Assembly: GCA_001771135.1 (NCBI GenBank)
Contig: MESW01000008.1
Coordinates: 153,630 to 208,521, forward strand
DNA from: a candidate division CPR3 bacterium GWF2_35_18
GTDB taxonomy: Bacteria; Patescibacteriota; CPR3; GWF2-35-18
Reading direction: 5' to 3'
DNA length: 54,892 nt
Shown here one piece after another: positions 12,561 through 29,252 of this stretch. The notes beneath the pieces were generated by a model, which did no database searches, was not told the DNA's origin, and saw nothing but the letters and a program-made list of their open reading frames with translations. Numbering within the stretch: the first letter of the stretch is position 1; each line of letters opens with the position of its first letter. Both the position numbers and the translations under genes were made by a program.

Positions 12561-15500
12561 CTAGTGTTCTTTTAGGATAATTGGCAAGAAAATCTGGTCG
12601 TAATCTGGAGTTGGTTTTTCCAGTACGTGCAAGACCGCTTCAGCAGAAACAGGGTCAGCATTGGTAGCCGTGACGGTCACCGTGTTGGTGAGCGTATCGG
12701 TTGTAATTGCCGTCGTTGCGAAGCTGAAGGTGATCGATTGCTCGACAGACAAGAACCCTGTCCAGTTGATGGTGCCAGAAATCTCTTCGGCGCCGTTCTG
12801 GACGAGCCAGGAGTCGAATTGCAATCCGGCCGGCAGGGCGTCGGTCAAGACCACGCCCGTGGCGATGGTACCGATTGCCAGGTTGGTGACGGTGATGGTG
12901 TAGACGGCGCTGTCGCCGACGAATACTTCGGTAGGCGTCACATCCATCGTGACGGTCAGATTTGTGGAAGGCTCAACTGGCGGCGGGACCGTGCCAATCA
13001 AATCAACAGACCACACATGAGTGTAGCCATTTTTGGTCAGGCCAGCAAAGTAGCCAGTTTCACCATCCTTCCAGAAGATCGGACTGCTCGCTGAGCCGCC
13101 TGGATCAAGTTCACCTGAGTCGAAGTTGATTTGTCCATCTGTTGAATTGAAAAGATGGAAATGACTGAAGTAACTGAGGTCTGAGCATGTGTGCCCTGTG
13201 CAAATAGGTGCGTTGGCGCCGCCGTACACATCGGTATACATAATCCAGACTTCATTTCCATTCAAGTCCAATGCCACCTGTCGTGGGTCATCGTTATAAT
13301 GGTCAACTGGAACTAAAATGTATCCTTCTGGAGTAATGGCCATATTGTCAGAGATTGTATCGTTAGCGTCATACGTCCAGATCACCTGGCCATTAAGAGC
13401 GTCTAGGCGGTAGACTCGCCCTAATCCATCTGCCGTGAAAACAGAGTTACCGTATAGCAGTGGCATATCTCCCATGACCGAGTAAAAGTCGCCATCGTCC
13501 TCCCATATCAATTCGCCAGTTTGAGAATTGAGGGCAAGAACTGCTCCGTTACAGCCACTACAATCTGTAGTGACATAAAGAATTCCATCTTTTACAGACG
13601 GAGCAAAATCGAAGATATGACGACCATCGTTATAGTGCCAGACAGTTTCGCCAGTCAATGGATCTAGGGCATAAAGGCCACTGTTACGAACAGGCACGTA
13701 TAACAGATTGTCTGCCATAGTCATAGTCATGGCCGCGTCATATTCTTCTAAGTCGCGACGCTGCCAGATGATAGGATTGGGGAACTTATCAGGATGAGCC
13801 GCCATGACATAATCAATGGTGTAAGCCCACCCATAGTTATCGCCAAAATAGGCTAGCGTTCCATTGATTACCGGCGTACGGTCGGCGAAGATGCCGATAT
13901 CGTGGCCAGTAGTACAACTGACTGTCCAAACAGGTGTGCCTGTCAAAGCATCCACAGCATAAGTTGTCCCTCCACCAAATGGACCTTGTTTACAACTTGG
14001 TCCACTGCTGACAGTTCTAGTAGCATCCCCAATGATCAAGATAGCACGACCATCTGGCATGTATGCCAGTGCCGGCGTGGCGTCCACGTTGGCGCCGCCG
14101 GTTCGTTCAGACCAGAGGAGCTGAATGCTGGATGGATCGATTTCACTTTCACTGTAACCGGTATGGGCAGCATCTCGCTGGGCCTGTGGCCATTGGGATT
14201 CTGTCACATTCGTGGATACCACGATCTGTGGACCCCAGGACTCAACTTCCTGCCCGGCGTCATCTACTGCCGTGATGGTAGTGGTATACAACGCTGTGTT
14301 GGTGAAGACATTCATCGGTAGCTGAATCGTAGTGCTCATCCAGTCAGTTCCGGACAAAGGATAGGTTTCGCTCAAAACGCGGTTAAGCCAGACTTCGAGT
14401 GTTGCGGTAACGATTTGATGGTCGTCGCGAATGTAGGCGCCGATTTCAATAGTTCCGCCGGCAGGCGTCAACCATTGATCAGGAGTTGCACCACTGACCC
14501 ATGGAGCCGTATCACACCCAGCTCCGAGCACAGCCCGGCAGGGGTCGATCTGACCGTAACCGGTCGCAGGATCGAAACCAGGTTCGCCCAAGTCTTTGAC
14601 GGTAGAAGTGATGACCATCGTGACATCAGCAATCGTCCGGCTGGGATCTTGCTCGATCAGCATTGCGGCGAGCGCGGCGACCTGAGGAGTGGCTGGGCTT
14701 GTACCAGTGACACCAGCGTATTCGTTGCCGGGCACAGGACCGACGATGAGACGATCCCAATTCGGATCACCTGACTGATGATCGCCGCCAGGCGCCATGA
14801 CAAAGTTACCGTCATAACCCCACGTTGAATAGTAAGCCCTGTCAATGCTGTACTTGTTCGCCGTAGCTCCGACTACCACGCCACGAGAATCGCAGGCCGC
14901 CGGATAGTGAAGCTCGTCGAGACCGCTGTTACCGGCGCTAAAATACATAGCAACACCGGCGTCCAGCGTGGCCGAGACTTGGTTACAGAGCGGTTGAGAA
15001 AACCAGGTGCTACCAAGGCTGATAGAAGCGACAGAAACACCTTGATCAACCAGCCATTGCATGCCCTGGATGACATCAGAGTCAGAACATCCAACATTGT
15101 CGCAGGCCTTGGCCATGAACAGGTTGGTTGACCAGTTGAAACCAGTCACGCCTAAACCATTGTTACCAACGGCGCCAGAGATACCGCTCATTAGCGTGCC
15201 ATGCCCATTGTCGTCGTACGGATCGCCGTACGATAAAGTGGTGGTATAAGCAACCACGTTGGCTGCCAGGTCTTCGTGGTCCCAGGCAATGCCGGTATCC
15301 ACGAAGCCGATCGTGACATCAACCGTACCGGTGATTGTTTCCCAAATCCTCGGAAGCTGCAATTGCTGCAGATTCCACTGTTCTTGGTAAATGGGGTCAT
15401 TCGGCGTGACGACAGTCATAATATCCACTGGGCGGATGTAGTCCAGCGCGGCTGAATAACCTTTACGTTTTAGTTCGGCCACGAGGGTTTCTTCTTGACC

Positions 15501-15908
15501 TTCTTGAACCTGCAGCAGTGTTACGTTAGACGTCAATATCTTGGCCGATTGGATTTGAGGCAAGTCTTCGACACGCAGAACAGTATTGCTGGCCTGAACA
15601 ATCACATGGCCGAGTACGTATTCTGTCGAAGTTGGTTCTGCCGCCGGCGTATCGCCGCGTATTAGCGCCAGACATTGATCCCATTGGTCATCATCAATAG
15701 CTGGGTTACGGCCGAACGTAGTGAAGGTTTCGCCATTGATATTTTCTTGGTTGAGTTTCTCTTCGCAAACGGTGCCATCGGCCAGAATTTGAGGTTGGTA
15801 GGAGTTAGGTTGATATTGTTGAGGCGCAGAGGCCTGGGCTGAACTGCTCAGATTACCGAGCAATACCGCCAAAATTAACAGGATATTGATAAACTTGGTG
15901 GGATTCAT
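12561..15908 (-). CDS. Secreted subtilisin-like (S8) serine protease fused to a PQQ/BamB-like beta-propeller and a C-terminal DUF11 repeat domain; GC-rich foreign gene
   Basis: Signal peptide MNPTKFINILLILAVLLGNLSSSAQA. Catalytic triad motifs DTGIAWDHEDL, HGTLMSG and GTSPATPQVAA. Repeated G..VW beta-propeller blades. DUF11-like TVTNLAIG...LTDALPAGL. SD AGAGGA lies upstream. Confidence 0.85.
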   Translation of the reverse strand: MNPTKFINILLILAVLLGNLSSSAQASAPQQYQPNSYQPQILADGTVCEEKLNQENINGETFTTFGRNPAIDDDQWDQCLALIRGDTPAAEPTSTEYVLGHVIVQASNTVLRVEDLPQIQSAKILTSNVTLLQVQEGQEETLVAELKRKGYSAALDYIRPVDIMTVVTPNDPIYQEQWNLQQLQLPRIWETITGTVDVTIGFVDTGIAWDHEDLAANVVAYTTTLSYGDPYDDNGHGTLMSGISGAVGNNGLGVTGFNWSTNLFMAKACDNVGCSDSDVIQGMQWLVDQGVSVASISLGSTWFSQPLCNQVSATLDAGVAMYFSAGNSGLDELHYPAACDSRGVVVGATANKYSIDRAYYSTWGYDGNFVMAPGGDHQSGDPNWDRLIVGPVPGNEYAGVTGTSPATPQVAALAAMLIEQDPSRTIADVTMVITSTVKDLGEPGFDPATGYGQIDPCRAVLGAGCDTAPWVSGATPDQWLTPAGGTIEIGAYIRDDHQIVTATLEVWLNRVLSETYPLSGTDWMSTTIQLPMNVFTNTALYTTTITAVDDAGQEVESWGPQIVVSTNVTESQWPQAQRDAAHTGYSESEIDPSSIQLLWSERTGGANVDATPALAYMPDGRAILIIGDATRTVSSGPSCKQGPFGGGTTYAVDALTGTPVWTVSCTTGHDIGIFADRTPVINGTLAYFGDNYGWAYTIDYVMAAHPDKFPNPIIWQRRDLEEYDAAMTMTMADNLLYVPVRNSGLYALDPLTGETVWHYNDGRHIFDFAPSVKDGILYVTTDCSGCNGAVLALNSQTGELIWEDDGDFYSVMGDMPLLYGNSVFTADGLGRVYRLDALNGQVIWTYDANDTISDNMAITPEGYILVPVDHYNDDPRQVALDLNGNEVWIMYTDVYGGANAPICTGHTCSDLSYFSHFHLFNSTDGQINFDSGELDPGGSASSPIFWKDGETGYFAGLTKNGYTHVWSVDLIGTVPPPVEPSTNLTVTMDVTPTEVFVGDSAVYTITVTNLAIGTIATGVVLTDALPAGLQFDSWLVQNGAEEISGTINWTGFLSVEQSITFSFATTAITTDTLTNTVTVTATNADPVSAEAVLHVLEKPTPDYDQIFLPIILKEH

Positions 15909-16842: not shown

Positions 16843-17036
16843 ACAATTTATTCTGTTCTATCAAATTGATGTGGATATAAAAATGAAGCAAATAGTACCA
16901 GTTTGGAACCAATTATACAATACATTGGTCCAATGGTCTAAAATCATTCAATCATGGGATGATACTTCTCTACAGCCTAGCTTAGGCATTGCTTACTCTA
17001 ACAATCTCTAACTACTACTATACAATAGCATTATGG

Positions 17037-17114
17037 AATACAAGAATACTAGGTTCAAATTATTGACGGTTATGTAATACAAGAATACTAGGTTCAAATT
17101 ATTGACGGTTATGT
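17037..17114. repeat. Perfect tandem duplication, 2 x 39 bp (AATACAAGAATACTAGGTTCAAATTATTGACGGTTATGT)
   Basis: Read directly: 17037-17075 is identical to 17076-17114. It lies in a 518-bp non-coding region at the left end of the element. Confidence 0.95.
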
Positions 17115-19239: not shown

Positions 19240-21264
19240 ATGAAAACAAAACTATCACAAATTTTAAAAGACTCAGAATATAGTTTGAGTCTTTTTTCAG
19301 ATGACTTAATTCATGAGTTAGATTCGAAGATATTCTATAAGGATGAAAAACCATATATTAACTGCATTATTAGAGATAAAGAAATTCTATTAAAACCTGA
19401 AGAAATAGTAAGACAATTATTTACATCAAAATTAATTCATGATTATGGTTATCCTAAAGAACGTATTAAGTTTGAGCATTCTGTTAAATTTGGACGTGAA
19501 GTAAAATCGGCAGATATTGTAATATTCGATAAAGACCGTAGAACAGTAGAATATCTTATTGCTGAAATCAAAAAGCCAAAATTAATTGACGGAAAAGCTC
19601 AATTACGATCCTATTGCAATGCTACAGGAGCTCCTATTGCTGTATGGACTAATGGTGAGGATATTGCCTATTATAATCGTAAAGATCCTAATTACTTTGA
19701 AGATTTAACTGATATTCCAAGTGTAGATCAAAAACTAGAAGATTTGCTAACAGAATCATTTACCTATAGAGATCTTATTATTAACGATAAAATTCCCAAT
19801 AAAGGACTCTCACTAAAAGAAGTGGTCCAAGATATGGAAGATGAGGTCTTGGCTGGTGCAGGAGTTGATTCTTTTGAAGAAGTGTTCAAGCTTATTTTTA
19901 TCAAGCTATTTGATGAAAAAAAGAGAGAACATGACAAGAAAAGGTTATACAAGATTATTGAGAAAAAGCTTGGTGAAGTCACAATGTCTAATTATAAGGA
20001 TGTAAAAGAAGTTTTAAAGCAAGAAGATAATAGTCTTTATGAAGAATTGGAGTTTAGAAATAAAGGGCAGTCTGAAGGTGAATTGAAAAAGAAACTTCAA
20101 AGGCTATTTGATGAAGCAAAACAAGTATGGAAAGGAATATTTTCAGAAGATTCAACTATTCAATTAACACCCTCGCATCTTTCAATTTGCGTCTCAGCCT
20201 TACAAGATGTCAAATTAACTAATTCTAACCTAGATGTAATTGATGAAGCATTTGAATATCTAGTAAGTAAAACAGCAAAAGGTGAAAAGGGACAATATTT
20301 CACACCACGATATGTAATTGATATGTGTGTAAAAATGCTTAATCCTAAACCAGGTGAATACATGATTGATCCTGCCTCTGGTTCTTGTGGGTTTCCTGTT
20401 CATGTGATCTTCTGGTTACGTGAAAGAACAAAAAAACCGATAGAAGAGCTAAAAGATGACATTGCAAAGATATTTGGAATTGATTTTGATGAAAAAGCAG
20501 TCAGAATCGGTAGGACACTTAACATCATTGCAGGTGATGGTCATACCAATGTATTACACCTTAATACTTTAGATTATGAACGTTGGAATGAAACGGTTGA
20601 AAATATAGACTGGATGCTTACCTATGGAGAAGGCTTTAAAAGACTAGAAAAACTAAAAACAGAGAAAGATTCATATAAACAATTCCAGTTTGATATTCTA
20701 ATGGCAAATCCTCCTTTTGCTGGTGATATCAAGGAACCTCGTGTTCTACATAAATACAATGTAAGTTTTAACTCTCAAAACAAAGCAAAATCGGCTGTAG
20801 GACGCGATCTACTTTTCATTGAGAGGAATTTAGATTTTCTAAAACCTGGTGGTAGGATGGCAATAGTTTTGCCTCAAGGGCGTTTTAATAATACCAGCGA
20901 TAAGGAAATAAGAGCGTATATATCAGAAAAAGCTCGTATTTTAGCTGTTGTAGGACTTCATGGAAACACTTTTAAACCTCACACTGGGACCAAAACCAGC
21001 GTGTTATTTGTCCAAAAATGGGATGAGAAACTGTGTCCAAAAAAGAAAGATTATCCGATATTCTTTGCAGTATCAGAAAAAGGTGGAAAGGACAATTCAG
21101 GTGATTATGTTTACCTGAAAGATGAAGAAGGAAATAGAAAAATTGATAAGAAAGGTCATTTAATTGTAGAGCAAGATCTATTTAATCATAATGGCGAACT
21201 TCCTGATGGTGTAGCCGAGGCTTTTTGTGAATTTGCCAAAAAGGAAGGTTTAAGTTTTTCATAA
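19240..21264 (+). CDS. N6-adenine DNA methyltransferase (gamma class, HsdM/BcgIA-like) with an N-terminal HsdR_N-type PD-(D/E)XK domain
   Basis: AdoMet motif I DPASGSCGFPV precedes catalytic motif IV NPPFAG, giving the gamma order. The N-terminus PEEIVRQ...ADIVIFD...YLIAEIKKPK...QLRSY...WTNG matches the HSDR_N_2 nuclease-fold pattern (D...ExK). Confidence 0.85.
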   Translation: MKTKLSQILKDSEYSLSLFSDDLIHELDSKIFYKDEKPYINCIIRDKEILLKPEEIVRQLFTSKLIHDYGYPKERIKFEHSVKFGREVKSADIVIFDKDRRTVEYLIAEIKKPKLIDGKAQLRSYCNATGAPIAVWTNGEDIAYYNRKDPNYFEDLTDIPSVDQKLEDLLTESFTYRDLIINDKIPNKGLSLKEVVQDMEDEVLAGAGVDSFEEVFKLIFIKLFDEKKREHDKKRLYKIIEKKLGEVTMSNYKDVKEVLKQEDNSLYEELEFRNKGQSEGELKKKLQRLFDEAKQVWKGIFSEDSTIQLTPSHLSICVSALQDVKLTNSNLDVIDEAFEYLVSKTAKGEKGQYFTPRYVIDMCVKMLNPKPGEYMIDPASGSCGFPVHVIFWLRERTKKPIEELKDDIAKIFGIDFDEKAVRIGRTLNIIAGDGHTNVLHLNTLDYERWNETVENIDWMLTYGEGFKRLEKLKTEKDSYKQFQFDILMANPPFAGDIKEPRVLHKYNVSFNSQNKAKSAVGRDLLFIERNLDFLKPGGRMAIVLPQGRFNNTSDKEIRAYISEKARILAVVGLHGNTFKPHTGTKTSVLFVQKWDEKLCPKKKDYPIFFAVSEKGGKDNSGDYVYLKDEEGNRKIDKKGHLIVEQDLFNHNGELPDGVAEAFCEFAKKEGLSFS

Positions 21265-21273
21265 TAAAACAAT

Positions 21274-22653
21274 ATGCAATATTCAATAGTAAATTATAGC
21301 GAAATACTAAATCAGTCTGAAAATTTTAGGCTTGATGCTGAGTATTTTAAACCAGAATATTTGAAAGTTCATAACATTATTCAATCTGATTGGTCTATAC
21401 TGAACAATATTGCAAAAATTTCAGATGGAGACCATGCAAAATTTCCTGAAAATCAGAAAGAAAACGTACGATATCTGAGAGCAAAAGATTTGAAAGGAAA
21501 TACTATTTTAAATGATGACCCTGTTTATGTAAGTAACGACTACTTTTTAAAACAAAAAAGATCGTGGATTGAATCGGAAAATATTTTGTTATCCATAATG
21601 GGAAGCGTAGGAGAAATTGCAATAACTCCAGTTGATTTTCAAGTATGTATGGCAAACAGAGCAATTAGTATCATTAAGAAAATAAAAGAAAATCCTTACT
21701 ATATTTTCGTTTTTCTAATTACTATTTATGGTATTAACCAAATTGAAAGGTTACAAGCGGGAGGAGTGCAAGAAAGAATTAATTTGGATGACTTAAGAAA
21801 AATAAGAATACCAAAATTGAGTGACTCATTCGTATTAAAAATTCAAGAGTTAGCTTTAAAAAGGTTTAAGTTAATTGAAAAATCAAAATCTCTCTATACT
21901 GAGGCTGAAAACTTGCTTCTTTCCGAGCTTGGACTTGAAGATTGGAAGCCACAACACAAACTTTCATTTGTAAAAAACTTTTCCGATACAGTCGAAGCCG
22001 AACGGATTGACTCAGAGTATTTTCAACCGAAGTATGAGGAATTACTTAGAAAAATTAAAGAATATAAAAATGGTTTTAATACTCTTAAAAAAATAGTAAT
22101 GTTAAAAGATAAAAACTTTAATCCTGAAAATAAGGAAATTTATAAATATATAGAATTAACAAATATTTCTGATAATGGTGAGATAATAGGTTATACCGAA
22201 TCATTAGGACAAGATCTTCCTACAAGAGCAAGAAGAAAAGTTCAAAGTGATGATGTGATAGTATCTTCAATAGAAGGTTCTCTTGAAAGTGTGGCTTTGA
22301 TAAATGATAAACTGGATAATGCTTTGTGCTCCACTGGTTTTTATATTAATAGATCAAAAGAGATAAATTCGGAAACATTGCTTTGTTTTGTTAGAACTAT
22401 TGCAGGGCAATTACAACTTAAAAAGGGTTGTTCAGGAACTATCCTAACAGCGATAAATAAGCCCGAATATGAAGATATTTTAATTCCAAAGATAAGACCA
22501 AAAATTCAAGAACAAATCAAAGAAAAAATAAATGAAATGTACAAATCAAAACAAGAATCAAAAAACTTTCTTGAAAAAGCTAAAAGAGCGGTAGAAATTG
22601 CGATTGAGGAAAACGAAGATACTGCTATGAAATATCTAAGTACTAACGATTAA
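21274..22653 (+). CDS. Restriction-modification specificity subunit (HsdS-like, two target-recognition domains)
   Basis: Duplicated architecture: each half starts with a RLDAEYFKPEY / RIDSEYFQPKY motif, and conserved helical spacers follow each TRD. It lies 9 nt downstream of the methylase. Confidence 0.85.
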   Translation: MQYSIVNYSEILNQSENFRLDAEYFKPEYLKVHNIIQSDWSILNNIAKISDGDHAKFPENQKENVRYLRAKDLKGNTILNDDPVYVSNDYFLKQKRSWIESENILLSIMGSVGEIAITPVDFQVCMANRAISIIKKIKENPYYIFVFLITIYGINQIERLQAGGVQERINLDDLRKIRIPKLSDSFVLKIQELALKRFKLIEKSKSLYTEAENLLLSELGLEDWKPQHKLSFVKNFSDTVEAERIDSEYFQPKYEELLRKIKEYKNGFNTLKKIVMLKDKNFNPENKEIYKYIELTNISDNGEIIGYTESLGQDLPTRARRKVQSDDVIVSSIEGSLESVALINDKLDNALCSTGFYINRSKEINSETLLCFVRTIAGQLQLKKGCSGTILTAINKPEYEDILIPKIRPKIQEQIKEKINEMYKSKQESKNFLEKAKRAVEIAIEENEDTAMKYLSTND

Positions 22654-22663
22654 TTTAAATACT

Positions 22664-23707
22664 ATGAACCAAAATAAATTACAAAAAGCAATTGAACATT
22701 TCAAAAACTTATCTCAACAATCTACATTTTTAGAGGATGAAAAAGAACGGAAAGAACGGATTCTGTTTTATCAGGATAAACTGAATAAAGATATTTCAAA
22801 TATAGACTTTGAAGAGATGATTGCAAAGTTATGGGCAATGCGGATATGGGGCAACAAAGACTATATAATCCAAAAGATGATAAACGAAAATGGATTGAGA
22901 AAAATGGTCACTGTGTTCAAAAAGGCAAAAGATAGTAATGTAATTGTTTCTGATTTATATGAAGAGATGATTGGAAGTATTAAATACATGGGACCAAGTA
23001 TAGCTACCGAATTATTATGCTATTTTGTCCCTTACAAGGCTGGTATTTGGAATACTAGAGCTCGAGAAGCATTACTATGGTTAGAAATAAAAGATATTCC
23101 ATTAAAATATCGAATTAGTGGCGAAGAATACAAGCATTTTAATACTATCTTGGTATCAATATCACAGAAATTAAAAGAAAACGGTTTTGATGATGTTGAT
23201 TTATTGTTAGTTGATTACTTCTTATGGGAAATTACTGAAAAATTCGAAATAAGCGAAGAGATAAAATCATTACCTAAACAAGATATAAAAAATAAAAGTA
23301 GACATGACGAGCTCAGAGACAAAATTGCGATGATTGGTTCATGGTTAGGTTTTGAAATAGACACTGAAAGACAAATCGCTCATGGAGCAGTAATTGATAC
23401 CGTTTGGGAAGCAAAGATTGCTAATTTAGGTAAGGTTACTTACGTTTTTGAAGTACAAGATAAAGGTTCTATAGATAGTTTGATTCTAAACTTACAAAGA
23501 GCTCAATCTAACTCAACGGTCCAAAAGCTTATAGTGGTTTCAGATGAAGATCAGATTGAAAAAGTTAAAAAGGAAATTGGGACAATGCCAGAAACGTTTA
23601 GAAAAGCAACTAAATTTTGGACAGCAATCGATGTTGATAAAACTTATAATAATCTTGAGCAAGTCACAAACTCAATTTCTCAATTAAATCTAGTAGATGA
23701 AGCATAA
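22664..23707 (+). CDS. Hypothetical protein: N-terminal HhH-like region plus C-terminal nuclease-like (restriction-endonuclease-fold) motif
   Basis: It lies 10 nt downstream of hsdS. The C-terminus HDELRDKIAMIGSWLGFEI...VIDTVWEA...VTYVFEVQDKGSIDSLILNLQRA resembles endonuclease-fold modules (D ... E-x-Q/K). No Walker A motif and no helicase motifs. Confidence 0.45.
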   Translation: MNQNKLQKAIEHFKNLSQQSTFLEDEKERKERILFYQDKLNKDISNIDFEEMIAKLWAMRIWGNKDYIIQKMINENGLRKMVTVFKKAKDSNVIVSDLYEEMIGSIKYMGPSIATELLCYFVPYKAGIWNTRAREALLWLEIKDIPLKYRISGEEYKHFNTILVSISQKLKENGFDDVDLLLVDYFLWEITEKFEISEEIKSLPKQDIKNKSRHDELRDKIAMIGSWLGFEIDTERQIAHGAVIDTVWEAKIANLGKVTYVFEVQDKGSIDSLILNLQRAQSNSTVQKLIVVSDEDQIEKVKKEIGTMPETFRKATKFWTAIDVDKTYNNLEQVTNSISQLNLVDEA

Positions 23708-23884
23708 TAAACGTTCAAAAGTAATTCTGTAGACAAGTATTTTAAATTGTGATATACCATAATAATTAGTTAAATATGAAATACTATGGGTAATAATAAA
23801 ATATTACATATAGTTTATAAATATAAGCCAGTTCATTGGAAGGACTGGCGTTTTTAGTATAAATAGCTCATAAGGAGGTTTCGC

Positions 23885-24832
23885 ATGAAGAAAAAAGATG
23901 CTATCTTCTTCACCAGTTTTATTACTGTTTTAACTTTCGTTTTACTCTCTTTTTTAGAAACACCTGTTAATAAAGTTTTGGCTGAAGCAACTTCCTGGTT
24001 AAATACTGGAAATCATATGTATTCTAATGTATCGGGTTATGTCGGAATTGGAACGACAGCTCCAGGAGTAAAACTTCATGTGTATTCAGGTACTCCAGCC
24101 ACATTGTCTAGTGGTGGATATCTGATGATAGGTAATCAGGCTTCCTCAAATTTAATTATTGATAACAATGAGATTTCCGCCAGAAACAATGGAGTCCATT
24201 CTGATCTTTATCTTCAAGCATTAGGTTCAACCACTTCTGATACTATTATTAATCCTAACGGTGGATTAGTAGGTATTAGAACAAATGATCCTTTAACTAC
24301 GCTACATTTAGGAACAGGTGGACCTACTTTAAGATTAGGAGATGCTTCGGTAGCCGATGGTGGACAGATTGAATGGAGAACTACCTCTGCTAGACATTGG
24401 AATATTGATCAAAATAATGATACTTTAAGGTTCTTTACAGAGAATACTAGTGATGGCGTGGGAGTAGTCAGAATGGCTATAAGTGAGAATGGGAAGTTGG
24501 GATTAGGAATAGATACTCCAGGAACAACTCTTCATGTCTACAATGGTTCCCCAGCTACTCTGACAGGTGGAGGATACATTATGGTTGGAGATCAGGGAGC
24601 GGCTAACATTATTATTGATAACAATGAAATCTCAGCTCGAAATAATGGAAGTTATTCCGATTTGTATCTACAAGCATTAGGAACGAATAGAAATACAATT
24701 ATTAACCCTGGGAATGGAAAAATAGGATTGGGAACCACAGATCCCGACGAAAAATTAGAAGTAAATGGAAATATAAAATTAAATGGAAATATTGTTTCTG
24801 ATGGGAATATCTGTATAGGTAACTGTAATTAA
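23885..24832 (+). CDS. Secreted repeat protein (tail-fibre-like internal duplication)
   Basis: SD AAGGAGG and a signal or anchor sequence. It carries two ~90-aa repeats (about nt 24029-24300 and 24491-24760) sharing GIGTTAPGxKLHVY.G.PATL.GGGY.M.G.Q...N.IIDNNEISARNNG..SDLYLQALG. C-terminal Cys pair ICIGNC. Confidence 0.6.
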   Translation: MKKKDAIFFTSFITVLTFVLLSFLETPVNKVLAEATSWLNTGNHMYSNVSGYVGIGTTAPGVKLHVYSGTPATLSSGGYLMIGNQASSNLIIDNNEISARNNGVHSDLYLQALGSTTSDTIINPNGGLVGIRTNDPLTTLHLGTGGPTLRLGDASVADGGQIEWRTTSARHWNIDQNNDTLRFFTENTSDGVGVVRMAISENGKLGLGIDTPGTTLHVYNGSPATLTGGGYIMVGDQGAANIIIDNNEISARNNGSYSDLYLQALGTNRNTIINPGNGKIGLGTTDPDEKLEVNGNIKLNGNIVSDGNICIGNCN

Positions 24833-27499: not shown

Positions 27500-29101
27500 G
27501 TGTTAAATATGCAACAAACAGCGGTTATATATACAAGAGTATCAACTGAAGAACAAGCCAAAGAAGGAGCTAGTTTAGAGGCTCAAGAAAGACTATGTAA
27601 AGAATATTGTATTAGACAAAACTGGATTATTCTAAAAGTTTTTAGAGAAGATGGTGTGAGTGGTGGTAAGATTGATAGACCAGCTTTACAGAAATTGTTA
27701 GATTACGTATCAAAAAATAAAGGAAAGGTCAATTTTTGCCTTGTTCATAAAATAGATCGATTTGCTAGAGATTTAAGTATTCATGCTCAAATTAAAGGAA
27801 GGTTAATTAAATATGGTGTTGAATTAAAATCTGTAACTGAAGATATCAACAATACTCCAACAGGTAAGGCGATGGAGGGAATGTTAGCCGTATTTTCTGA
27901 ATATTATAGAAATAATTTGAGTTGTGAAGTAAGTAAAGGACAAAGAGAACGTGTTCTACAGGGATATTGGCCTTTTCCAGCTCCAATAGGCTATCTAAAT
28001 GGCTTTAGAGATTCTTTTAATGGTCCAATAAAGAAGTTAAAGAAACCAGATTGTGAATATATTAAGAAAGCATTAGAAGACTTTGCTATTGGAATATTGC
28101 AAACGCCAGCAGATTTTAGAAGGTATTTAAATGAAACTATTAAAAAGTATAAATGGCGAAAAACTCCAATTGCCAAACAACAATCGTTTAACATTTTATA
28201 TAACATTTTTTACGCTGGATATGCCTGTCTACCATCTTTAGGAATACTTCAAAAAGGAAAAAGCGAAAGTATGATTTCTTTAGAAACGTTTCAAAAAGTA
28301 CAGGATCGTTTAAAAGAAAATTCTCGGAAAAAGTATAAACGAATGCCAGTAAATGAAACATTTCCTCTTAAAGAAAAATGTTATTGCTTAGATTGCGGAT
28401 ATAAGATTACAGGAGCATATGCAACTGGAAGATCAGCAAAATATCCTTTTTATCGTTGCGATAGGGGTTGTAAATTAGGAAAAAGGACAAAGAGTATTAG
28501 TAAGGACGATTTTGAAGAAATGTTTGTTATTTATGTTGAAAAAGTCAAACCTCAGAAAAGATATATTAAATTATTTAATGCAGTAATTTTAGATTATTAT
28601 AATAAAAAAATTAATGAAAAGAAGAATAATGTTAAGGAAGCCGAATTTAAAGTAAATACTTTGAAAGAAAGACAAGAACAGTTAATAGATTTGATAACTG
28701 AGGCGAAACAAAAAGGAAATAGCCAAAGAAAAGTACTTTATGAGAATAAGTTAGACCAAATAGAAAATGATTTACTAAGTATGCAAACAGTCAAAAAAGA
28801 TGATGAAATATCGGTTTCTGAATTTGGAACCGTACTTGAAACTTGTAAACAACTATTAGAAAATCCTATTGCACTTTGGAAAAACGGTGATATATACCGT
28901 AAAATAGCGATTCAAAATATGCTGTTCCCTATAGGCTTACAGTATAACGCAAAAATTGGATTTGGAACCACAGAAATAAACGTTGCGTATAGTAGTATCA
29001 AGGCTTTAGAGGATCACCAAACTGAAAAGTCAAACTTGGTGAGCCGCCCGGGACTCGAACCCGGAACAATTTGCTTAAGAGGCAAACGCTCTACCGATTG
29101 A
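27500..29101 (+). CDS. Large serine recombinase (resolvase/invertase N-terminal domain plus recombinase and zinc-ribbon domains)
   Basis: AVIYTRVSTEEQ carries the catalytic Ser. Also present: KIDRPALQKLL, HKIDRFARD, the Cys-rich segment CLDCGYK...YRCDRGC, and a coiled-coil tail. The likely true start is the ATG at 27509. The last 65 nt are antisense to tRNA-Lys. Confidence 0.9.
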   Translation: MLNMQQTAVIYTRVSTEEQAKEGASLEAQERLCKEYCIRQNWIILKVFREDGVSGGKIDRPALQKLLDYVSKNKGKVNFCLVHKIDRFARDLSIHAQIKGRLIKYGVELKSVTEDINNTPTGKAMEGMLAVFSEYYRNNLSCEVSKGQRERVLQGYWPFPAPIGYLNGFRDSFNGPIKKLKKPDCEYIKKALEDFAIGILQTPADFRRYLNETIKKYKWRKTPIAKQQSFNILYNIFYAGYACLPSLGILQKGKSESMISLETFQKVQDRLKENSRKKYKRMPVNETFPLKEKCYCLDCGYKITGAYATGRSAKYPFYRCDRGCKLGKRTKSISKDDFEEMFVIYVEKVKPQKRYIKLFNAVILDYYNKKINEKKNNVKEAEFKVNTLKERQEQLIDLITEAKQKGNSQRKVLYENKLDQIENDLLSMQTVKKDDEISVSEFGTVLETCKQLLENPIALWKNGDIYRKIAIQNMLFPIGLQYNAKIGFGTTEINVAYSSIKALEDHQTEKSNLVSRPGLEPGTICLRGKRSTD

Positions 29102-29112
29102 GCTAGCGGCCC
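29037..29112 (-). tRNA. tRNA-Lys (anticodon CUU), CCA encoded
   Basis: The reverse complement reads GGGCCGC-TA-GCTCAATCGGTAGAGC-G-TTTGC-CTCTTAA-GCAAA-TTGTT-CCGGG-TTCGAGT-CCCGG-GCGGCTC-ACCA. Total 76 nt. Confidence 0.85.
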
Positions 29113-29212: not shown

Positions 29213-29233
29213 AAACGATTGAGCTAGCGGTCC
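29213..29233 (-). pseudogene. tRNA relic: degenerate copy of the 5-prime part of tRNA-Lys
   Basis: AAACGATTGAGCTAGCGGTCC compared with the intact AAACGCTCTACCGATTGAGCTAGCGGCCC: CGATTGAGCTAGCGG is identical, and the T-arm and acceptor 3-prime strand are absent. Confidence 0.5.
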
Positions 29234-29252
29234 GTAATAAATTCAATTGTTG

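Follow-up and report, generated by a model that had tools for sequence, protein, structure and literature searches.

The stretch of DNA analysed here (referred to as the window) comprises 54,892 nucleotides (nt) from the candidate division CPR3 bacterium GWF2_35_18 (assembly GCA_001771135.1, contig MESW01000008.1, positions 153,630 to 208,521), and our subject is the gene at its positions 22664-23707, encoding a protein of 347 amino acids (aa) that we call X347. The gene begins with an ATG on the forward strand, 10 nt behind the specificity (S) gene of a restriction-modification (RM) locus, and both the list of open reading frames (ORFs) and a reading of the sequence itself agreed with the original prediction in this respect. 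The peptide strings quoted in that prediction are all present in the protein, and coincide with the most conserved alignment columns of the family to which it belongs. The label "orphan" did not survive a search of approximately 5.8 billion proteins, which returned 1,703 homologues at E <= 1e-3. The features that make up the gene, its two domains and its apparent transcription unit are listed below; all of them are on the forward (+) strand.

19240..22653, +: methylase/specificity (M/S) pair, consisting of a 674-aa N6-adenine methylase fused to a nuclease domain and a 459-aa specificity subunit with two target recognition domains (Pfam HSDR_N_2 plus N6_Mtase, and Methylase_S; PADLOC; NCBIfam; PDB)
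22654..22663, +: 10-nt spacer between the S gene and X347 (direct sequence reading)
22664..23707, +: X347 gene, encoding a two-domain protein, stop codon included (ORF list; 1,703 homologues; AlphaFold2 model)
22664..23263, +: N-terminal domain, all-helical and of Ogg-like HhH-GPD fold (residues 1-200), which is proposed to read modified bases (Foldseek matches to 3knt, 3n0u and 3fhg; PF21790 in relatives; McrB-like GTPase fusions)
22946..23080, +: helix-hairpin-helix (HhH) hairpin, Gly/Pro-rich loop and next helix, residues 95-139 (E. coli Nth register; secondary structure of the model; frequencies in 106 family members)
23264..23299, +: interdomain linker of low confidence and variable length, residues 201-212 (predicted local distance difference test, pLDDT, 52-70; indel-rich alignment columns)
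23300..23704, +: C-terminal domain of predicted PD-(D/E)xK nuclease fold, residues 213-347 (model of the domain alone; Foldseek; viral-library matches; invariance in 106 members)
23827..23859, +: terminator-like hairpin (23827-23849) and T-run (pattern scan: 8-bp stem with 5 GC pairs, followed by GTTTTTAGTA)

The S gene ends with a TAA stop codon at 22651-22653, followed by the spacer TTTAAATACT and then by the ATG of X347. No obvious Shine-Dalgarno sequence or other ribosome-binding site could be read in these 10 nt, which suggests translational coupling or re-initiation for X347. The terminator-like hairpin is likely the end of the transcript, and because the spacing is so short and one such hairpin follows X347, the methylase (M) gene (19240-21264), the S gene (21274-22653) and X347 look like one transcription unit, carried on a single transcript.

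The M protein of this unit has an N-terminal HSDR_N_2 PD-ExK domain (96 bits, residues 53-160) in which the D...E-I-K motif is intact. It scores 919 bits on the PADLOC Type I methylase model MTase_I, which is of equal length, and its best solved relative among PDB matches is the Type IIB enzyme RM.BsaXI. In NCBIfam the M protein resembles MAD2 at 295 bits, where the cut-off is 720, and the S subunit resembles MAD5, again below cut-off; other MADS genes were not detected among the window proteins scanned. Owing to the intact-looking PD-ExK domain and the resemblance to RM.BsaXI, the pair does not appear to be nuclease-less, and the view of this RM locus as one without a nuclease is corrected accordingly. 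Judged by these matches the M/S pair looks Type IIB-like, or MAD2-MAD5-like, and would be a system separate from X347.

Domain anatomy and residue pattern of X347

An AlphaFold2 model of X347, built with a 38-sequence alignment, reached a pLDDT of 90.2 and a predicted template modelling score (pTM) of 0.84, and is laid out as an all-helical N-terminal domain up to approximately residue 200, a short low-confidence linker, and a C-terminal domain of alpha-beta-beta-beta-alpha-beta topology. In Foldseek searches of the PDB, the N-terminal domain matched the Ogg proteins of M. jannaschii (3knt), T. maritima (3n0u) and S. solfataricus (3fhg), with probabilities of 0.9-1.0 and target template modelling (TM) scores of 0.5-0.6. 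The Pfam family PF21790 (OGG-like) scored 14.4 bits on X347 itself, below its cut-off of 27, and reached 30.6 bits, above the cut-off, in one relative (P0013) and 26 bits, near the cut-off, in another (P0089). Modelled alone, the C-terminal domain reached a pLDDT of 92.1, and its top PDB matches were almost all PD-(D/E)xK nucleases (the MspJI nuclease domain, AF1548, BamHI, NucS, EcoT38I, Cap4, OkrAI and the R2 endonuclease domain), found by Foldseek with probabilities of 0.95-1.0 and modest E-values of 3e-3 to 4e-2. NucS was represented by the structures 2vld (probability 0.99) and 5gke, and MUS81 was also a structural neighbour. When the same domain was compared with a viral structure library, only Mrr-type and restriction nucleases or generic PD-(D/E)xK proteins were returned. 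The models thereby confirmed the two differing halves of the original prediction, an HhH-like N-terminal half, here of Ogg-like fold, and a C-terminal restriction-endonuclease fold. PADLOC and NCBIfam scans of X347 gave no match and PHROGs gave one marginal match; that no NTPase motifs had been recognised in the protein agrees with the Pfam, NCBIfam and PADLOC scans. EFHC2 and Hsp82, which came up as relatives in sequence-only PDB searches with the whole protein and with the family profile, were set aside as spurious coiled-coil-like matches.

Residue frequencies were counted across 106 family members, and the reader domain was placed in register with E. coli endonuclease III (Nth, from the K-12 genome) by a gapless alignment of the HhH hairpin from its second glycine. 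The sites of interest in the two domains are as follows.

G110: hairpin glycine, corresponding to Nth G118
S112 (22997-22999): Schiff-base Lys site, corresponding to Nth K120; Ala in 63 members, Ser in 40, Lys in none
N130 (23051-23053): catalytic Asp site, corresponding to Nth D138; Asn in 105 members, Thr in 1, Asp or Glu in none
H214, E235, D245 (23396-23398), E263 (23450-23452), Q265 (23456-23458), N276, R279 and K288: candidate nuclease active site; H214 in 106 members, E235 in 104, D245 in 105, E263 in 106, N276 in 106, Gln or His at position 265 in 77 and 29, Lys or Arg at 279 in 104 and at 288 in 94

In the model N130 caps the N-terminus of helix 131-139, where this emerges from the Gly/Pro-rich loop (P123, G127), and it is at such an N-cap behind a Gly/Pro loop that enzymes of the EndoIII/Ogg superfamily carry their catalytic Asp. 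Changes from Asp to Asn at the catalytic site of HhH-GPD enzymes are classical inactivating, substrate-trapping mutations. As the Lys site is occupied by Ala or Ser, and the catalytic Asp site by Asn in all members but one, the Ogg-like domain is probably a reader and not an enzyme. On the same count, X347 was not assigned to the HhH-GPD glycosylases (Ogg2/AGOG, Dag), for which a conserved catalytic Asp is the criterion. Fold and residues together lead us to read X347 as a putative combination of a catalytically dead glycosylase fold with a live nuclease, and the conserved candidate catalytic residues, along with the predicted nuclease fold, are those expected if the original proposal of a nuclease was correct.

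The same reader is used in other proteins. A profile of the N-terminal domain alone, run against 1.84 billion representatives, found 1,332 clusters at E <= 1e-3 and 153 at E <= 1e-30, most of them with the 350-aa architecture of X347. In five proteins (P0151, P0163, P0219, P0234 and P0267) the domain (E 1e-32 to 1e-49) lies ahead of a McrB-type AAA_5 GTPase, and in McrB-family enzymes this N-terminal position is that of the modified-DNA reader, so a reader role for the Ogg-like domain receives independent comparative support. Two of the five carry an extra reader domain (EVE in P0163, McrB-N, or MrcB_N, in P0219) and so appear to be dual-reader Type IV enzymes, and in a further protein (P0224) an Mrr_cat nuclease domain follows the sensor. 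The signature "G-x-A/S ... IWN" is retained in the reader fusion proteins.

Spread and gene neighbourhoods of the family

The best 120 homologues are nearly all 340-370 aa long, with 90-100% query coverage and 40-55% identity; the closest is 55% identical over its full length, and the closest named one comes from a Patescibacteria genome. The family is "hypothetical" or unnamed in public annotation, in PADLOC 2.0, in NCBIfam and mostly in Pfam. A precomputed Pfam label, PF27126, is attached to four homologues (P0035, P0065, P0066 and P0095) and is absent from the Pfam copy searched; under this number, a family covering the C-terminal domain or the whole protein may already exist in a newer Pfam release. 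A pattern scan of 185,579 species genomes gave 108 confirmed loci. Bacterial hosts include Chloroflexota, Bacillota, Planctomycetota, Bacteroidota, Acidobacteriota and Saccharibacteria, and archaeal hosts include Methanobacteriaceae, Archaeoglobaceae, Brockarchaeota, Aenigmatarchaeota and Nitrososphaeria. In a maximum-likelihood protein tree archaea and bacteria are interleaved, the Chloroflexota members have at least five origins, and X347 groups with sequences from Planctomycetales and Gammaproteobacteria. Homologues are carried on four plasmids, where each is annotated "hypothetical protein", and none was found in 50,697 phage records. This distribution is that expected of a horizontally moving accessory gene.

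A different expectation would attach to a housekeeping DNA-repair endonuclease, in which the Ogg-like domain would find oxidised guanine or another lesion and the nuclease would nick beside it in the style of NucS/EndoMS. Such a role would suit the structural neighbours, which are repair enzymes (Ogg, NucS/EndoMS, MUS81), and some housekeeping genes in the vicinity, e.g. RNase HII downstream in five loci. The very patchy spread, the mixing of two domains of life in the tree, the carriage on plasmids and on a serine-recombinase island, the strong RM and defence neighbourhood, and the fusion of the reader to McrB GTPases all speak against it, and we judge a repair function to be very improbable. 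Nor was X347 placed with NucS/EndoMS proper, with which it has only the C-domain fold in common; its N-terminus is Ogg-like, where NucS has a dimerisation/DNA-binding domain, and its motif is ExQ/H, not ExK.

Gene neighbourhoods were surveyed in a sample of 80 of the 108 confirmed loci, and immediate upstream genes were tallied for 71 of them. These comprised Eco57I/MmeI/N6 methylases (5), D12 methylases (3), HsdR (3), HsdS (3), AbiEii (2), OLD-like (2) and EVE (2) genes, among others; RM components of five or more kinds made up at least 14 of the 71, and the survey found the association of the relatives with RM and defence genes to be strong. Among the tightly coupled upstream genes are HsdR, HsdS, D12 methylases, MmeI/Eco57I-type enzymes and the AlwI endonuclease, which means that several of the partner systems own a nuclease already. 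On the downstream side most genes are unrelated. Preceding the six closest homologues are, in order, an N6-methylase fragment; a cassette of m5C (5-methylcytosine) methylase, HaeII and Vsr, in a locus where two serine recombinase genes lie a few kb upstream; a PLD-helicase paired with an MmeI-like methylase; a methylase/S fusion; a NERD gene in a methylase-free locus; and a Shedu SduA gene, likewise in a methylase-free locus. A homologue on a Monoglobus plasmid is monocistronic, with no methylase nearby. As the family co-resides with m5C and with several m6A (N6-methyladenine) methylases, X347 must ignore simple methylation.

Within one clade of Clostridia the gene is kept and the cassette upstream of it varies, being an AlwI endonuclease and methylase, an M and S pair like that of the window with its 674-aa methylase, or another methylase pair. 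A full AlwI-type Type IIS system, consisting of the AlwI endonuclease and a D12-class methylase of 620-665 aa, lies immediately upstream in five of these loci (L042, L047, L048, L049 and L051), and near-identical homologues stand behind different cassettes in two (L044 and L046). These loci suggest a cassette-swapping defence hotspot anchored by the X347 homologue. The X347-type gene appears to be a self-sufficient unit, often found at the 3' end of RM operons and without one fixed partner, and its recurrent, often translationally coupled place behind such operons is not fully explained by co-location in defence islands alone.

The survey bears directly on the role for which X347 had originally been proposed, namely a nuclease or sensor partnered with the M/S pair, in a slot like that of PrrC. 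As a dedicated effector, X347 would bind to the methylase/specificity complex and cleave at or near unmethylated sites, or would be held latent in the manner of PrrC and released upon inhibition of the RM enzyme. The 10-nt spacing, the lack of a separate ribosome-binding site and the single terminator after X347 all favour such a role, as does the frequency with which relatives terminate methylase-containing operons. The M and S genes of the window, however, are rarely the partners: in tblastn searches a relative of the methylase occurred anywhere in 6 of the 80 loci, and a relative of the S subunit in 1. One locus, from a distant member of the Clostridia (L043), does speak for the proposal: it has an S gene and an M that is 59% identical to that of the window, and the X347 homologue stands two genes downstream of S with an extra gene for a 348-aa protein between them. 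A substitute for the Type I R subunit would be expected to occur consistently with HsdM/HsdS pairs that lack HsdR; the M type of the window adjoins in just 1 of the 80 loci, and HsdR itself lies immediately upstream in three. The partners range from Type I systems with HsdR, through AlwI and the HaeII cassette, to MmeI-like enzymes, some loci are methylase-free, and near-identical copies of the gene stand behind different cassettes. In addition, a PD-ExK domain is already present in the M protein, which is similar to the Type IIB enzyme RM.BsaXI, and X347 contains a putative DNA-reading domain of its own. What is left of the proposal is thus the two-domain anatomy, the idea of a nuclease or sensor with a role in defence, and the apparent co-transcription; a dedicated M/S effector seems to us hardly credible.

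The likeness to PrrC of the EcoprrI hsd locus goes as far as an extra co-oriented defence gene in an RM operon. PrrC is nearly confined to Type I hsd loci, which also regulate it. It combines an ABC-ATPase with an anticodon nuclease, whereas X347 has neither domain (no NTPase or HEPN matches in Pfam, NCBIfam or PADLOC) and its relatives have partners that vary or are absent, so the PrrC-like slot was abandoned.

Relation to END nucleases and other modification-dependent enzymes

That no named family could be recognised in X347 has been overtaken by a 2025 preprint that describes its architecture: Yee et al. (bioRxiv 2025, PMC12191111) define "END nucleases", in which hypermodified bases are sensed by an inactive EndoIII/Ogg domain (PF21790) and cutting is left to a fused nuclease. 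In the founding END-PaCF1 proteins a PLD nuclease is N-terminal and the sensor C-terminal, and in a reciprocal search the same authors came upon fusions of the sensor with a "NucS-like PD-DExK" nuclease as well as with McrB-like GTPases (PMC12191111). Their tested PD-DExK example was END-Mag (MDV2503288.1), for which HHpred returned the Ogg proteins of S. solfataricus, M. jannaschii and T. maritima; phages whose guanine is modified were restricted by it, whereas unmodified phages and those modified at T or C were not (PMC12191111).

By analogy, X347 fits every END-Mag descriptor given in the preprint. It combines what looks like an inactive PF21790-like EndoIII/Ogg sensor with a NucS-like PD-DExK domain, and shows the same three Ogg structures among its matches. 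The END sensor also occurs on McrB-like GTPases and has no dedicated methylase, both of which are encountered in the X347 family, and the END setting in defence islands, with no conserved co-associated gene, is mirrored in the heterogeneous, RM- and defence-rich neighbours described above. X347 differs from END-Mag, as portrayed there, in its apparent translational coupling to an RM operon, and from END-PaCF1 in that its PD-(D/E)xK nuclease is C-terminal, as opposed to an N-terminal PLD.

We therefore consider it likely that X347 is a stand-alone, single-polypeptide, modification-dependent (Type IV-like) endonuclease of the END kind, co-transcribed with, yet mechanistically independent of, the Type IIB-like RM enzyme. 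In the mechanism that we propose, the N-terminal domain would have retained the Ogg/EndoIII HhH fold and would flip a base into its pocket for inspection. With the glycosylase chemistry gone (Ser or Ala for the Schiff-base Lys, and an invariant Asn for the catalytic Asp), a non-canonical base would be bound and not excised, and this binding would position or license the C-terminal PD-(D/E)xK domain (E235, D245, E263-V-Q265) to cut the backbone. No cognate methylase would be needed, because host DNA without the target base would be spared. The likely targets would be bulky phage hypermodifications, for which 7-deazaguanine derivatives are our best guess owing to the analogy with END-Mag and the ancestry of the fold in 8-oxoguanine/N7 reading. 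Two layers of defence would then act independently in the apparent mobile island, the RM enzyme on unmodified DNA and X347 on hypermodified DNA that escapes it.

A number of points weigh against this reading. Foldseek matched no PDB structure at E <= 1e-3 with either X347 or its C-terminal domain, and hhalign, comparing the family profile with E. coli Nth, gave a probability of 0.2. The Lys and Asp sites were assigned from the gapless sequence register and predicted secondary structure, not from a 3-D superposition. X347 itself has Asn at residue 46 (22799-22801), where 98 of the 106 members have Glu, the one near-invariant site at which it deviates. In place of the canonical ExK the nuclease motif reads D...ExQ/H, a PD-(D/E)xK variant known from BglII and BamHI-type enzymes, and in the model basic residues from the following helix and strand appear available to it. 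The kinship with END-Mag would be one of architecture and shared structural matches, not of direct sequence comparison. Lastly, approximately 30 of the 71 upstream genes are co-oriented within 50 nt, about half of them RM parts of five kinds, and coupling this tight may reflect some functional coupling of the family to RM operons. Taken further, the family could have been selected as the translationally coupled last gene of whichever RM operon is at hand, a generic two-layer module whose expression, and perhaps activity, is tied to the genes upstream, with real cross-talk between X347 and the M/S pair in the present locus; we regard this as unlikely, though deserving of some weight.

A further objection concerns the chemistry of the reader, as the invariant E116 and the near-invariant D184 (present in 94 of the 106 members) could in principle be a source of alternative catalysis. 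X347 would then be an active base-excision restriction enzyme, in which the modified base is removed by the Ogg-like domain, with the help of E116, D184 or Asn-assisted chemistry, before the PD-(D/E)xK domain cuts at or near the abasic site, i.e. a fused version of the defence glycosylases Dag and Brig1. Monofunctional HhH-GPD glycosylases, too, are without the catalytic Lys. Active base excision is the main mechanistic rival because defence against phages with 7-deazaguanine is also provided by stand-alone, active HhH glycosylases (Getz et al., bioRxiv 10.1101/2025.10.29.685425). However, the canonical Asp site is never acidic in the family, the same Ogg-like domain is the reader module of McrB-type enzymes, and the sensor domain is likewise taken as inactive in the END preprint (PMC12191111), and on balance we hold excision to be improbable.

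The proposed modification-dependent nuclease can be set beside several known systems. With the MspJI family of Type IV enzymes, X347 would share an arrangement in which one polypeptide carries, at its N-terminus, a reader that flips modified bases and, at its C-terminus, a PD-(D/E)xK domain, and the MspJI nuclease domain is the top PDB match of the latter. The MspJI reader, in contrast, is of SRA-like beta fold and recognizes 5mC/5hmC (5-methyl- and 5-hydroxymethylcytosine), whereas that of X347 is all-helical HhH-GPD, and there is no sequence similarity. The Ogg2/AGOG glycosylases (MjaOgg 3KNT, TM1821 3N0U, SsoOgg 3FHG) have the fold of X347 residues ~40-200, with the HhH hairpin followed by the Gly/Pro-rich loop, but in X347 Ser/Ala and Asn stand in for the catalytic Lys and Asp, a further helical extension is present at the N-terminus, and a nuclease is fused to the fold. 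McrBC and the BrxU/GmrSD enzymes in RM and BREX loci form a modification-dependent second layer, so that unmodified and modified DNA are targeted in complementary fashion, and the X347 reader occurs on McrB-like GTPases; X347 differs in its compact size, with no NTPase and no DUF262 or HNH modules. Type IV enzymes such as BrxU/GmrSD, lying within RM and BREX loci, have been described as a complementary layer (Payne et al., bioRxiv 10.1101/2024.01.29.577857). A literature search for a "Ceres" system, said to contain an OGG-like domain, led nowhere, and the latter preprint makes no mention of it.

If the END-type reading of X347 is correct, approximately 1,700 proteins from both prokaryotic domains would be linked to the END-nuclease principle, with a testable mechanism and N130, D245 and E263 as targets for mutants, and modification-sensing by dead repair glycosylases would be extended to archaea and small-genome lineages. 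The principle itself is not new, END-Mag being a member of the PD-DExK subtype that, according to the preprint, already restricts modified-guanine phages (PMC12191111).

The apparent mobile island and other features of the window

X347 and the RM operon look like part of a mobile island. A serine recombinase gene (27500-29101) adjoins the gene for tRNA-Lys (29037-29112) in the window. The recombinase ORF overlaps tRNA-Lys(CTT), which is on the opposite strand, by 65 nt, and a 30-nt copy of the 5' part of the tRNA, 83% identical, is found at 29216-29245, 121 nt beyond it. At the presumed left end of the island, direct repeats, including a repeat matching the tRNA, were searched for and none was found.

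Downstream of X347, a gene for a secreted 315-aa protein contains an internal direct repeat of 166 nt (24060-24681; 71% identity, 456 nt apart). A tandem repeat of 2 x 39 bp, 97% identical and non-coding, lies at 17031-17108, upstream of a divergent gene pair, one member of which encodes a double zinc-ribbon protein of 220 aa and the other a protein of 377 aa with no family match in Pfam, NCBIfam, PADLOC or PHROGs. Finally, the gene at 12561-15908, for a 1,115-aa subtilase/beta-propeller/DUF11 protein, has a G+C content of 48-56%, compared with ~30% in the flanking DNA.

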